Source of the DNA: Escherichia coli | GTDB lineage: Bacteria; Pseudomonadota; Gammaproteobacteria; Enterobacterales; Enterobacteriaceae | Assembly (NCBI RefSeq): GCF_003334305.1 | Contig: NZ_QOWS01000012.1 | Direction: 5' to 3' (one strand) | Length of the DNA stretch: 64,000 bases | Shown here: positions 9,005-53,026 of the stretch, piece after piece | Numbering within the stretch: position 1 is the first letter of the stretch | Layout of the letters: each line of letters starts with the position of its first letter | Notes under the pieces: generated by a model | Seen by the model: the letters and a program-made list of their open reading frames with translations, nothing else | Databases searched by the model: none | Told to the model about the DNA's origin: nothing | Translations under genes and position numbers: made by a program

Positions 9005-11518
9005 TTAATTTTGGCTAATACACGGTAAAATAACCGTTACGGTGGTTAAGTTGCTGCTATTGGGTGGTTGAATAAAACAGGATTTATCACCCCAGCGTAA
9101 AGTAAGTTTGCTGTCATCCTGAATGCCGTTGAGGTATACAAAGCCGCCATCAGCAACCAGTCCTAATTCTTTATGGCTGGTTTTATCTTTTACGCTAATC
9201 CCCAGTGGTGGGTGACTACCATCTGCCAGGCGAATAACCCCCATGATTTGATAGCCCTTGCGGGTATCAAGTTTGGCGTAGCCAATAGCACCTTCGGTTA
9301 AGGTGGTGGTGATAACCGAGTTTTCGATATCCACATTTTCTGGAAGATTTCGGGTATCAACGCTTAATGATGTTGTTATGTAACTGCTGACTGATGGAAT
9401 AACTCCGATGCCATACCGATTAGTTACCGCGCGTTTATTGTTCAACGGAATATCTTCTGCACCATCTGCGTCGATCATAAAACGCGAGTCAGCACTACCA
9501 CTATAGTCATGGAAAGCGGCTCCGTGACGAGTCGCCGTGAATGAACCATTCCAACTGGCATTCAGAGAATAATAACTGTCTCGCTGTGATGTCCCGGAGA
9601 GATAGAGACGACCGTTCTCGGTATTATGCTGATAACTGGCGCGTAGTGACGCTTTCATATCTTTGAATTCATCATTGTCGCCTGAAGCAGAAACGCTCCA
9701 GGAATTATTTCGATCGGAAGAGTCATACCACGAAGCAGTATGCGAAATCTTGTTATCCTGATTTCGTTGCATACCATAGCTCAATGTTCTACTGGTTCCC
9801 CAGGGAATCGAAATATTTAGGTACAGTTGATCCTGGTTGTCTTCTTCCCAGTTTATTCGGCTAAATGTTAGAGAAGTGGAGACGTTTTTTAATGGCCCGA
9901 TATCAAAATCGCGGCTAAGTGATAATGAATAATTCACATTACTGCTGGCGTCCCAGTAAGTATTACGAGCCAAACTTACGTATGTATTTAACCTTAATGA
10001 TTCAAGATACTGGTTAAACGTGACAATATAACTCTCTTTTTCATTCTGATAATTCGTGTAATGGTTAGTGTCATTGATATATTCATTCATTGTCACAAAG
10101 TTTTTATCAGAGAAACGGTAACCAGCGAAAGTGAGCTGGCTACCGGTAGATTCAAAACGTTTTGAATAGTTAGCGCGGTAGCTATAACCCGTTTCTTTAT
10201 CCTGATTATGCAACTGAGCATCAGATCGTGTGACATCAAAAGATAATGAACCCAATGAGTTAAGGTTAAAGCCAACGCCGGCAGCCAGAGATTGATAATC
10301 ACGGTTTGTTAAAACTGAACCACCATACAGGGATACATTGTTCAGCCAACCCCATGAGAATTCACCAGTCCAGAAGAAGGGTTGTTGTAAGGAATCACCA
10401 CCAACGCTGGTCGGTTTACCCATAGCAGTGGTGTAGCGAATCTGCCCTTTACGCGTCAGATAAGGAATACTATTAGATGCAACTTGCCATTGCGTGACTT
10501 GCCCGTCCTCTTCTTCAACCTTGACGTCCAGTTGCCCCTGTAATGTATTGAATAAATTAGTAATAGCAAATGGGCCAGGAGGAACATTTTCTTGATAAAT
10601 AATACGGTTGTTCTGTGAGACAGTGACCTTTGCATTCGTTTGTGCAACACCCGTGATTTGCGGTGCGTAACCACGTAGATCAGGCGGCAACATATTCTCA
10701 TCGCTTTTCAACGAAACGCCAGAAAAATGGAAAGAGTCGAAAATAGAGGATTCAGTATCGTATTGACCTATAGTTAGTTTTGCATTAATTGCTGGGATTG
10801 GGCGAAACAAATAAATACGCGGAAAATCCAGGTTGTTCGCCTGGCTTTTGCCATTGTTAAATGATTGATCGTACTGGTAATCAGTACGCAGGCGCCAGGC
10901 CCCAAGATTAACCCCAGCCTGCCCATAGGAACTTATATTTTGTGAATTATCGCCCTGATGTGGTGCATAATGAGAGGCATATAAATTGTAGTCAAGAAAT
11001 GCCCCAGCAATACCATGATCCCAAAGTTCAGGAGGCGTCCAGTTTGCATCTTTGTATTTTAACCATGCCTGAGGTGCAGATATGGATAATTGCATTTTCC
11101 CTTTATCGAGATAAGTTGTAATTTGTTTTTCTTTTTCGATAGGGTAACAACCATCGATCAGGTTTTGCTGAGCCACTTCAATAATCTCATCAGTAAAGCC
11201 TAATAATGTTAATTGCTCTGGAGTCAGACAAACTGCAGTTTGGTTATCAATTAATACCCATTGCAGGTCCAGATGGATTGGCGTCCTTTTATTATTAATA
11301 AGAGCGTTTAATGAGTATTTACCTACGGGTAATTGGCCATCAGTTTCAAATTGGGAAAGGTTAACGTTTTCACGATCTTCGGCTTCGATTAAATCTTTGT
11401 TGAATTCAACGGCATAAGCTGACGCACAACCAATGATGAGAACGGATAATGAACAATAAATATTTTTAATCAATTCGCTTATTGTGGTTAATTTTAATTT
11501 TTTATACATCTGTTCCAC
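9005..11518 (-). CDS. yqiG: Outer membrane fimbrial usher, uninterrupted
   Basis: 837 aa continuous ORF of the FimD/PapC usher family. It sits between the major subunit and chaperone genes. Confidence 0.9.
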   Translation of the reverse strand: MEQMYKKLKLTTISELIKNIYCSLSVLIIGCASAYAVEFNKDLIEAEDRENVNLSQFETDGQLPVGKYSLNALINNKRTPIHLDLQWVLIDNQTAVCLTPEQLTLLGFTDEIIEVAQQNLIDGCYPIEKEKQITTYLDKGKMQLSISAPQAWLKYKDANWTPPELWDHGIAGAFLDYNLYASHYAPHQGDNSQNISSYGQAGVNLGAWRLRTDYQYDQSFNNGKSQANNLDFPRIYLFRPIPAINAKLTIGQYDTESSIFDSFHFSGVSLKSDENMLPPDLRGYAPQITGVAQTNAKVTVSQNNRIIYQENVPPGPFAITNLFNTLQGQLDVKVEEEDGQVTQWQVASNSIPYLTRKGQIRYTTAMGKPTSVGGDSLQQPFFWTGEFSWGWLNNVSLYGGSVLTNRDYQSLAAGVGFNLNSLGSLSFDVTRSDAQLHNQDKETGYSYRANYSKRFESTGSQLTFAGYRFSDKNFVTMNEYINDTNHYTNYQNEKESYIVTFNQYLESLRLNTYVSLARNTYWDASSNVNYSLSLSRDFDIGPLKNVSTSLTFSRINWEEDNQDQLYLNISIPWGTSRTLSYGMQRNQDNKISHTASWYDSSDRNNSWSVSASGDNDEFKDMKASLRASYQHNTENGRLYLSGTSQRDSYYSLNASWNGSFTATRHGAAFHDYSGSADSRFMIDADGAEDIPLNNKRAVTNRYGIGVIPSVSSYITTSLSVDTRNLPENVDIENSVITTTLTEGAIGYAKLDTRKGYQIMGVIRLADGSHPPLGISVKDKTSHKELGLVADGGFVYLNGIQDDSKLTLRWGDKSCFIQPPNSSNLTTVTVILPCISQN

Positions 11519-12814: not shown

Positions 12815-12964
12815 GCTTATTCTCAGGGCGGGGCGAAATTCCCCACCGGCGGTAAATCAACTCAGTTGAAAGCCCGCGAGCGCTTTGGGTGCGAACTCAA
12901 AGGACAGCAGATCCGGTGTAATTCCGGGGCCGACGGTTAGAGTCCGGATGGGAGAGAGTAACGA
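12815..12964 (+). promoter_or_regulatory. FMN riboswitch (RFN element) in the ribB leader
   Basis: The sequence contains the conserved RFN core segments: tctcagggcggggcgaaattccccaccggcggt ... cagcagatccggtgtaattccggggccgacggttagagtccggatgggagaga. It lies about 100 nt upstream of the ribB ATG. Confidence 0.9.
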
Positions 12965-24072: not shown

Positions 24073-24942
24073 TTATTTTATTGGGCACAGTTTGTTACGA
24101 TCTGGAAATAGTGTTGCCAGCGAACCAGCCAGAGTTTTCCAGTCCGTAGCCATTTTTTCTGCTTGTGCAGTTGTTATTACTGCACCTTGTTGTTTAATAA
24201 GCTCATCCTCCACTCTGGTATAGTGAATAATGGTAAAATCCGTAGAGGACCATTTATCCTTAGAGAACATCTTCGTCATCGCATGAATGTTTGCTTGCCC
24301 GTCATCGATAAAAACAATCGCGTCATATTTGTTCCCCATTTTATCCAGCATATAATCGAGAATTACGCCTTTATCTTGCCCGGAAGAAAAAAATACCCCC
24401 TGGCTGTACAGCCATGACCGTTTGAGTTTCCCTTTTTCAAAGGGTGGCAAAGTATCCTCTTTCTTCCTGAGTGCGGAAGACGAAAAATCAATGCCGTTTC
24501 GCTTTAATTCCCGCAATGTCGGAAAGAGAGTATCCGGTGCACGGGATGTCAGAGCAAAAGCGGTATGCTTTTGTTGCCACTGTTTTAACATTGTCGGTAA
24601 CTGTGGCTCGGTAAGCTGCATAGGGCTAAGTTCGTAAAGCATACTGATTGTATTTTCATACAGGCAGGGAACTTTTTGCGAGTCATCCGGCTTTAAGGGC
24701 AATTTATCGGTTTACCATTGATACCAGATATCACCGCCAATGCGTGTGCCACTCGTTAATAACGTATTATCAATGTCAAAAACCAATAATATCTTATCGG
24801 ATGGATAGAGAGTTTCCTTTTCGGTGATAATTTTACTGACCGCACTATATTCGCCAGTAACTATATTTTTTACCTGTGCGTAAGATAAAGCTGGCAGAGC
24901 AGAGAGTATCATCCAGAGAATGATTTTAAATTTATTATTCAT
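24073..24942 (-). pseudogene. Secreted HAD-like phosphatase (DxDxT motif), interrupted by an in-frame TAA
   Basis: The 76-aa ORF (24712-24942) has a signal peptide and the FDIDNTLL motif. It ends at TAA (24712-24714), and the same frame continues directly into the 209-aa ORF (..YQW*TDKLPLKPDD..). Confidence 0.7.
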
Positions 24943-42439: not shown

Positions 42440-44697
42440 ATGAGCTCTATCTCCCTGATCCAACCGGATCGCGACCTGTTCTCCTGGCCGCAGTACTGGG
42501 CCGCCTGTTTTGGACCGGCACCGTTTTTGCCGATGTCTCGTGAAGAGATGGATCAACTTGGCTGGGATAGCTGCGACATCATTTTGGTTACTGGCGACGC
42601 GTATGTCGATCACCCAAGCTTCGGGATGGCGATTTGCGGTCGTATGCTGGAAGCACAGGGCTTTCGCGTCGGGATCATCGCCCAGCCAGACTGGAGCAGC
42701 AAAGACGATTTCATGCGTCTGGGTAAACCGAATCTGTTTTTCGGTGTTACTGCTGGCAACATGGATTCGATGATCAACCGTTATACCGCCGATCGCCGTT
42801 TACGTCATGACGATGCCTACACGCCGGATAACGTCGCGGGTAAGCGCCCGGATCGCGCCACACTGGTTTATACCCAGCGTTGTAAAGAGGCGTGGAAAGA
42901 TGTACCGGTGATCCTCGGCGGTATTGAGGCTAGTCTGCGCCGTACCGCACATTATGATTACTGGTCCGATACCGTGCGCCGTTCCGTGCTGGTGGATTCG
43001 AAAGCCGACATGCTGATGTTTGGTAACGGTGAGCGTCCGCTGGTGGAGGTGGCGCACCGTCTGGCGATGGGCGAGCCGATTAGTGAAATCCGCGATGTGC
43101 GTAATACCGCGATTATCGTGAAAGAGGCGCTGCCTGGCTGGAGCGGCGTGGATTCCACCCGTCTTGATACCCCTGGAAAAATCGACCCAATCCCGCATCC
43201 GTATGGTGAAGATTTGCCGTGCGCGGATAACAAACCGGTGGCACCGAAAAAGCAGGAAGCCAAAGCCGTAACCGTGCAGCCACCGCGCCCGAAACCGTGG
43301 GAAAAAACCTACGTGTTGCTGCCTTCTTTCGAGAAAGTGAAGGGCGATAAAGTGCTGTACGCCCATGCTTCGCGCATTCTGCACCACGAAACCAACCCAG
43401 GCTGTGCCCGCGCATTCTGCACCACGAAACCAACCCAGGCTGTGCCCGCGCATTGATGCAAAAACACGGTGACCGCTATGTGTGGATCAACCCGCCTGCT
43501 ATCCCGCTTTCTACCGAAGAGATGGACAGCGTTTTTGCGCTGCCGTACAAGCGCGTGCCACATCCGGCCTATGGCAATGCCCGTATTCCGGCTTACGAAA
43601 TGATCCGTTTTTCGGTCAACATTATGCGCGGCTGCTTTGGCGGCTGTTCTTTCTGTTCTATTACCGAGCACGAAGGGCGCATTATTCAGAGCCGTTCGGA
43701 AGATTCGATCATTAATGAGATCGAAGCGATCCGCGACACCGTTCCAGGTTTTACGGGCGTGATTTCCGATCTCGGTGGGCCAACTGCCAACATGTATATG
43801 TTGCGCTGCAAATCGCCACGCGCTGAACAAACTTGTCGCCGTTTGTCGTGCGTTTATCCGGATATTTGTCCGCACATGGACACTAACCACGAACCGACGA
43901 TCAACCTCTATCGCCGTGCGCGTGATCTGAAAGGCATTAAAAAAATCCTCATCGCCTCAGGCGTACGTTATGACATCGCCGTGGAAGATCCGCGCTATAT
44001 CAAAGAGTTGGCGACCCATCACGTCGGCGGTTATCTGAAGATTGCCCCGGAACATACCGAAGAAGGGCCGTTATCGAAGATGATGAAGCCGGGCATGGGC
44101 AGCTATGACCGCTTTAAAGAGCTGTTCGATACTTACTCAAAACAGGCAGGTAAAGAGCAGTATCTGATCCCCTATTTCATCTCCGCGCACCCCGGTACGC
44201 GTGATGAAGATATGGTGAATCTGGCGCTGTGGCTGAAAAAGCATCGTTTCCGTCTCGACCAGGTACAGAACTTCTACCCATCGCCGCTGGCGAACTCAAC
44301 CACCATGTATTACACCGGGAAAAACCCGCTGGCGAAGATTGGTTATAAGAGCGAAGACGTCTTCGTACCGAAGGGCGACAAACAGCGTCGTTTGCATAAA
44401 GCGTTGTTGCGTTACCACGATCCGGCAAACTGGCCGTTAATCCGCCAGGCGCTGGAAGCGATGGGCAAAAAGCATCTGATTGGCAGCCGTCGCGATTGCT
44501 TAGTGCCTGCGCCAACCATTGAAGAGATGCGTGAAGCTCGTCGCCAGAACCGCAATACCCGTCCGGCGTTGACGAAACATACGCCGATGGCGACCCAGCG
44601 TCAGACGCCTGCTACGGCAAAAAAAGCGTCGTCTACGCAATCTCGTCCGGTGAATGCTGGTGCGAAGAAACGCCCTAAAGCGGCGGTTGGACGTTAA
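42440..44697 (+). pseudogene. ygiQ: Radical SAM protein YgiQ (UPF0313), split into 338-aa and 414-aa ORFs by a 38-bp tandem duplication
   Basis: The CFGGCSFC radical-SAM cluster motif lies in the second ORF. Removing one 38-bp copy gives a 2220-nt ORF (739 aa) reading ...[18 protein letters not shown]... Confidence 0.85.
43371..43446. repeat. Exact 2 x 38-bp tandem duplication inside ygiQ
   Basis: cgcgcattctgcaccacgaaaccaacccaggctgtgcc occurs at 43371-43408 and again at 43409-43446. The next 8 nt (cgcgcatt) repeat the unit start. Confidence 0.97.
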
Positions 44698-47001: not shown

Positions 47002-47105
47002 ACGTTCCTCCTTTATATGAACTCACCGGAGCAGGCTCCGGTGAGGTGTTGTGAACTTAAGTCTGGACGAAATGCCCGAAAACGAAAGTTTGAGGCGTAA
47101 AAAGC

Positions 47106-52815: not shown

Positions 52816-53026
52816 GCCTGATGCGCTACGCTCATCAGGCCTACAATATCTATTGCAACATGTTGAATCTTCGTGCGTTTGTAGGCCGGATAAGGCGTTC
52901 ACGCCGCATCCGGCATTAGGTGCTCAATGCCTGATGCGCTACGCTTATCAGGCCTACAAAATCTATTGCAACATGTTGAATCTTCATGCGTTTGTAGGCG
53001 GATAAGGCGTTTTCGCCACATCAGGT
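52816..53026. repeat. BIME cluster: four REP (palindromic unit) elements arranged as a tandem duplication of about 113 bp
   Basis: gcctgatgcgctacgc(t/a)tcaggcctac occurs at 52816 and 52929. gtaggc(c)ggataaggcg.. occurs at 52881 and 52994. A conserved 35-nt linker, a(a)tatctattgcaacatgttgaatcttc(g/a)tgcgttt, separates them. Confidence 0.9.

Follow-up and report, generated by a model that had tools for sequence, protein, structure and literature searches.

The gene ygiQ of Escherichia coli strain A7 lies within a 64,000-nt stretch of chromosomal DNA, which is called the window throughout this text, and is interrupted by an exact head-to-tail duplication of 38 nt. Very recent in origin, the duplication is private to A7 and postdates a divergence of about 0.02%. 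Very probably it is a microhomology-mediated tandem duplication (MTD), formed via slipped-strand mispairing or template switching at an 8-mer, CGCGCATT, that bounds the duplicated unit. The 'frameshifted' flag on this gene, assigned by the Prokaryotic Genome Annotation Pipeline (PGAP), is already found in RefSeq; what is added here are the mechanism, the privacy and the youth of the lesion. The window is the reverse complement of positions 4054648-4118647 of NZ_CP028767.1 (0 mismatches), the sequence of strain A7 (assembly GCF_022493755.1), which was isolated from orangutan faeces in the USA.

The tandem repeat and its microhomology

A 38-nt unit present twice back to back and followed by its own first 8 nt had been described in the initial annotation of the window, and this arrangement was reproduced in every detail. 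The unit, CGCGCATTCTGCACCACGAAACCAACCCAGGCTGTGCC, occurs in two copies with 0 mismatches between them (see Table 1 for coordinates), and the match extends 0 nt leftward and exactly 8 nt rightward of the 38-nt copies. Positions 43371, 43409 and 43447 of the window carry CGCGCATT, and the junction 43408/43409 is the sole new sequence made by the duplication event. Tandem Repeats Finder reports at this site a period of 38, 2.2 copies, 100% matches and a score of 168; over the entire 64 kb it finds a single other array, the 376-bp sib/ibs repeat. In 64 kb of random sequence, about 64000 x 4^-38 exact tandem repeats of 38 nt would arise by chance, i.e. ~1e-18, and the chance of an 8-nt match at its boundary is about 4^-8 = 1.5e-5.

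Ancestral ygiQ would have held CGCGCATT twice, 38 nt apart from start to start. A nascent strand, with the downstream CGCGCATT already copied, may have slipped back to pair with the upstream one on the template, and the intervening 38 nt would then have been copied again. The head-to-tail copies are 100% identical, the repeat is absent in the strains NCTC9088 and A28, and the duplicated unit is bounded by an 8-mer of which the wild type already has two copies. Because the unit both starts with and precedes the same 8-mer, its copies are perfect and the single-copy relatives carry the pair, we read the lesion as an MTD. Indeed, the 8-bp repeat that had been placed 30 nt apart in the undisrupted gene is present in every readable relative examined; in the wild type its two members are 38 nt apart start to start with 30 nt between them (loci L004, L007, L011, L012, L014 and L015).

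The same 8-bp repeat had also been named a likely slippage substrate. Support comes from an unrelated lineage, in which the two 8-mers have undergone the reciprocal event, a deletion of 38 nt. In the Logan contig SRR8481671_253 (locus L006), which contains no Ns, ygiQ falls short of the intact gene by exactly 38 nt. At positions 2440-2520 of this locus, corresponding to 43371-43446 of the window, the alignment reads ...CATGCTTCGCGCATTGATGC...; the 38 nt between the 8-mers are lost and one CGCGCATT is left. Over 6.2 kb of flanking sequence the contig is 100% identical to intact chromosomes of O26/O103 Shiga toxin-producing E. coli, and therefore the deletion is recent, independent and located in a different phylogroup. 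None of the 5,426 complete E. coli genomes has its junction, which is also absent from the GTDB representatives (one genome per species) and from the JGI metagenomes, and the 318-residue product of the deletion allele is recorded on one contig only. One CGCGCATT pair has slipped at least twice, once each way (+38 nt in A7, −38 nt in SRR8481671), and each product is a singleton. Since the reciprocal deletion arose independently at the same pair, the interpretation of the A7 lesion as slippage gains support.

A frequent disruption of ygiQ was considered as well, on account of ten split loci that were found via the 413-residue C-terminal open reading frame (ORF), and was rejected: eight of the ten are 100-N scaffold gaps in metagenomes. 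The loci concerned are L004, L005 and L009-L013, with gaps at ~2350-2490 in each, and L008, all of them on ENA/NCBI metagenome scaffolds. In the seven readable ones, the right edge of the gap directly follows strain-variable single-nucleotide polymorphisms (SNPs), located at positions 924 and 966 of the gene. The gaps are assembly breaks at strain polymorphisms, not mutations. The split ygiQ of L007 is due to an unrelated 1-nt deletion. On many contigs, scaffold gaps lead gene callers to a spurious stand-alone 413-residue 'YgiQ C-terminal' protein.

Frequency and age of the duplicated allele

The allele was searched with the 46-nt junction 43390-43435, of which single-copy genomes contain none of the exact 28-mers. 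Among the complete E. coli genomes it occurs once, namely in A7, from which the window itself derives; it is absent from the GTDB representatives and the JGI metagenome contigs. The identical truncated product of 338 residues is encoded on an additional NCBI contig, 139,848 nt long, which belongs to a second, draft assembly. All 30 matches listed for the locus have one copy. A survey of E. coli genomes had been suggested in the initial annotation, and with one carrier in 5,426 the duplicated form is clearly not the common allele.

For a 24-kb segment with ygiQ at its centre, the best matches outside A7 itself all span 23,963 nt, that is, 24,001−38. A base-by-base comparison over these 23,963 nt gives 5 SNPs and no other indel between NCTC9088 and A7. 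For A28, isolated from an echidna and having an accession and a locus-tag series near those of A7, the difference amounts to 6 SNPs, again with no other indel. Without one of the two copies, ygiQ of A7 is nucleotide-identical to the intact ygiQ of both strains. As had been calculated beforehand, the deletion of one copy restores a gene of 2220 nt (739 codons and a stop). The agreement with the length of K-12 YgiQ, which had been noted beforehand, is in fact an identity: the restored protein is exactly the sequence named YGIQ_ECOLI, recorded on at least 1000 contigs, and the local stretch of 11 residues named at the same time is found at residues 321-331. Because the restored gene is identical in nucleotides to those of NCTC9088 and A28 and in protein to that of K-12, the duplication is the only lesion of ygiQ. 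Because the nearest relatives are single-copy and otherwise nucleotide-identical in this gene, it is very young.

When differences across the whole window were polarised against NCTC9088 and A28, private SNPs numbered 8 in A7, 1 in NCTC9088 and 3 in A28. Those of A7 (positions 9039, 18312, 24714, 33012, 35776, 36718, 38441 and 46950), seven of which are G:C>A:T, comprise one nonsense, four missense (usher G824V, TolC A369V, QseB R72C and YgiV G45R) and three synonymous changes. The nonsense change is the SNP at 24714 in a DUF2608 gene (24073-24912, − strand), where CAA>TAA gives Q67*; this gene is intact in NCTC9088 and A28. Intact in both is also yqiH, coding for a fimbrial chaperone (8241-8989, − strand), which in A7 is frameshifted by T8>T7 at ~8616. 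The missing T may reflect true slippage in the homopolymer or else an error of the long-read consensus. With ygiQ, yqiH and the DUF2608 gene, three genes of the window are knocked out in A7, and over its 64 kb non-synonymous and synonymous changes stand in a roughly neutral proportion. The terminal branch of A7 looks as if it had not yet been filtered by selection, which fits an unselected recent loss of ygiQ and not a designed switch. That this branch is long and transition-biased could be related to a mutator episode, to mutations acquired during storage, or to mere recency.

The frameshift in yqiH also bears on the question whether the duplication itself is an error, the A7 chromosome being really one-copy and the second copy stemming from the assembler, from polishing or from a chimera in the library or polymerase chain reaction. 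Losses such as T8>T7 are an error type of long-read assemblies, and the ygiQ allele is a singleton among the complete genomes. However, in its microhomology the repeat is precisely what biological slippage would leave, it is located in unique mid-chromosome sequence far from any repeat that might confuse an assembler, and errors of k-mer or long-read consensus do not typically yield exact 38-nt tandem copies. Furthermore, the near-identical A28 with its neighbouring accession and locus tags is single-copy, and the contig of 139,848 nt with the identical product comes from a separate assembly. An artefact is therefore improbable; the small probability that we leave to it is due to the homopolymer frameshift in yqiH, which hints at some consensus errors in the record.

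The reading frame and the YgiQ protein

The additional 38 nt shift the reading frame, which terminates at the TGA 43454-43456 exactly as first annotated; the resulting ORF consists of YgiQ residues 1-325 and 13 out-of-frame residues. The remainder of the protein with the motif CFGGCSFC had been assigned to an ORF from 43453. This ORF exists, and yet the more relevant restart is the ATG at 43456 and not the TTG at 43453. In place of an intact single ORF, A7 has one of 338 and one of 413/414 residues. The restored protein scores 883.5 bits on TIGR03904 (cutoff 462.35) and has the three-domain architecture of this family in Pfam, namely Radical_SAM_N (29-379), Radical_SAM (380-585) and DUF3362 (594-721), together with its CxxxCxxC motif (CFGGCSFC). 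The break caused by the duplication falls inside Radical_SAM_N, where the N-terminal match ends at profile position 252 of 301. The core for [4Fe-4S] and S-adenosylmethionine (SAM) lies past the premature stop and is cut off from its start codon.

A disrupted ygiQ might still be active, either through −1 frameshifting within the duplication or as a two-piece protein made by termination and reinitiation, the second piece then comprising residues 327-739. The stop codon 43454-43456 overlaps the ATG of Met327 (43456-43458) as TGATG, and the two ORFs jointly lack only the native Leu326. Overlaps of the type TGATG are a classic arrangement for translational coupling. Against this, the 25 nt that precede the ATG (CAACCCAGGCTGTGCCCGCGCATTG) contain nothing like a Shine-Dalgarno sequence, the break lies inside Radical_SAM_N and not at a domain boundary, and a singleton allele is without evolutionary support. 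Recoding was rejected as unsupported: after position 43340 the shifted frame contains no slippery heptamer of the form X_XXY_YYZ, as a programmed −1 frameshift would have, and an allele seen once precludes conservation. We regard a residual activity by either route as very unlikely. Because a Shine-Dalgarno sequence and a −1 heptamer are both missing and the break is within a domain, ygiQ is treated as inactivated, and in strain A7 it appears to be a loss-of-function pseudogene.

For YgiQ, membership in its superfamily is the sole annotation, a function has not been demonstrated, and the gene is co-expressed with translation genes (y-ome, PMC6412132). No solved structure for YgiQ was detectable by sequence. 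In a review (PMC8950095), 'YgiQ' is listed among refolded cobalamin-dependent methylases, with a reference (number 24) that concerns an enzyme of Shewanella denitrificans. The view of YgiQ as a characterised cobalamin-dependent radical SAM methylase was rejected, as the cited work deals with Sden_1168 of that species. Restored E. coli YgiQ reaches 18.9 bits on NF038361, the model for B12-binding radical SAM P-methyltransferases of the Sden_1168 type (cutoff 575), and is not a member. This use of the name is a naming trap for annotators. The cluster at 90% identity that contains full-length YgiQ also lists FtsP, the 470-residue product of the upstream gene; these members are presumably a clustering artefact from fused or read-through sequence.

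Further features of the window are given in the last rows of Table 1.

Table 1. Features of the ygiQ locus, junction sequences of both slippage alleles, and other elements of the window
Feature	Position	Strand	Remarks
ygiQ, putative pseudogene	42440..44697	+	2258 nt; 2220 nt minus one repeat copy; PGAP: 'YgiQ family radical SAM protein, frameshifted'
38-nt unit, copy 1	43371..43408	+	opens with microhomology CGCGCATT at 43371-43378
38-nt unit, copy 2	43409..43446	+	opens with CGCGCATT at 43409-43416
Trailing CGCGCATT	43447..43454	+	downstream member of the ancestral microhomology pair
Truncated N-terminal ORF, 338 residues	42440..43456	+	ATG at 42440; stop TGA at 43454-43456
Second ORF, TTG start, 414 residues	43453..44697	+	contains CFGGCSFC
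C-terminal ORF, 413 residues	43456..44697	+	ATG = Met327; CFGGCSFC, Radical_SAM core, DUF3362
Duplication junction 31-mer in A7 ygiQ			GGCTGYGCCCGCGCATTCTGCACCACGAAAC
Deletion junction in SRR8481671			CATGCTTCGCGCATTGATGCAAAAACA
Deletion junction 31-mer			CATGCTTCGCGCATTGATGCAAAAACACGGT
376-bp tandem repeat	3597-4328		1.9 copies, 92% identical; known sibD/sibE-ibs locus
Sib antitoxin RNAs (Rfam RF00113)	3597-3746, 3973-4122		opposite two ibs toxin ORFs
FMN (flavin mononucleotide) riboswitch upstream of ribB	12815-12963	+	Rfam, above gathering score
ES173 small RNA	47040-47103	−	Rfam, above gathering score
naRNA4 (CssrE)	52884-52954	+	Rfam, above gathering score

Reversibility and likeness to known systems

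Misalignment of the same kind, across 38+8 nt of tandem homology, would plausibly remove one copy precisely and restore the wild type, much more often than a point mutation reverts. In Schizosaccharomyces pombe, MTDs revert at ~1e-4 per cell, as compared to ~8e-7 for the forward event (PMC8639346; Dan et al. 2021, PNAS). Quantitative reversion rates of short tandem duplications in E. coli were not found in the literature searched, with the classic papers of Lovett and Rocha outside the search.

Several points weigh against an MTD that inactivates ygiQ and can be undone. The slippage mechanism is deduced from the end product, and the duplication itself was read from a deposited assembly, the contig of 139,848 nt being the sole extra support. 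The CGCGCATT pair is ordinary, as ygiQ holds 6 pairs of at least 8 bp that are up to 100 nt apart. No hairpin was found that joins the 8-mers: folds of 46 nt and 70 nt of wild-type DNA, on both strands, gave z values of +0.9 to +1.4. Hairpin-assisted slippage was rejected, since this DNA folds no better than shuffled sequence. The loss of function is likewise deduced, for a protein without known activity or phenotype, and the reversion rate of the A7 allele is drawn by analogy from S. pombe. The restored window as a whole contains 143 direct repeats with a length of 8 bp or more and a spacing of 9-100 nt, versus 67±9 in shuffles.

It is very unlikely that the CGCGCATT pair is a recurrent two-way slippage hotspot and the duplicated allele a rapidly reversible OFF state, possibly leaky through reinitiation at TGATG. 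If true, this would be a natural bacterial example of an MTD as 'temporary mutation', in a radical SAM enzyme that is co-expressed with translation. A selected contingency locus may also be imagined, in which the pair is maintained as a switch that leaves ygiQ ON with 1 copy and OFF with 2 or 0 copies. Duplication in A7 and deletion in SRR8481671 did arise from the same pair in independent lineages, and MTDs can serve as reversible switches in yeast (PMC8639346). The copy number is, however, near-invariant, with 1 duplicated and 0 deleted alleles among the 5,426 complete genomes and none in the GTDB representatives or the JGI metagenomes, and not strain-variable as at a phase-variable locus. 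Each variant product is found on a single contig among ~15 billion proteins, such 8-bp pairs are common, and the deletion is unable to revert. Moreover, the two CGCGCATT copies are read in different frames and encode the conserved residues S-R-I-L and A-R-A-L, so that the protein explains their conservation. A maintained switch is thus hardly credible.

The event in A7 is an ordinary, strain-private and very young slippage duplication, a textbook MTD and not a new genetic system. What is added, on a small scale, is the reciprocal deletion that arose independently from this 8-bp pair: the natural pair of +38 and −38 nt from one E. coli microhomology makes a neat illustration of slipped-strand mispairing and a potential ready-made reporter for reversion. 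The duplication also explains mechanistically the RefSeq flag on ygiQ. All this matters very little beyond bookkeeping. No biological significance is evident in the loss of ygiQ by a single faecal isolate, YgiQ being without known function or phenotype.

Compared with the TIGR03904 YgiQ family, the restored product is identical to YgiQ of E. coli K-12, whereas the gene in A7 differs in being interrupted. The likeness to phase variation at simple sequence repeats is one of principle: a change in tandem copy number by a non-multiple of 3 shifts the frame and is reversible. The A7 locus differs from such systems, as it has no pre-existing multi-copy tract, no strain polymorphism and no sign of selection for switching. 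The MTDs described in S. pombe have units of 55-92 bp and microhomologies of 5-8 bp, inactivate genes by frameshift, and form preferentially at long, GC-rich microhomologies (PMC8639346). The duplication in A7 agrees with them in its short, exact head-to-tail repeat, its pre-existing pair within 5-8 bp, the frameshift, and the favoured GC-rich 8-bp type of the microhomology. Whereas those MTDs are selected laboratory mutants, the A7 case appears as a fixed allele in a natural bacterial isolate. Finally, slippage between closely spaced, GC-rich 'gapped' repeats was reported to cause frameshifting indels in bacterial pseudogenes (PMC4948707; Clayton et al. 2016, citing Lovett 2004). The ygiQ lesions resemble these in the GC-rich direct repeats within coding sequence and in indels of a length not divisible by 3, including the reciprocal deletion in L006. 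In that survey gapped repeats were almost exclusively deletional, whereas A7 represents the rarer outcome, a duplication.

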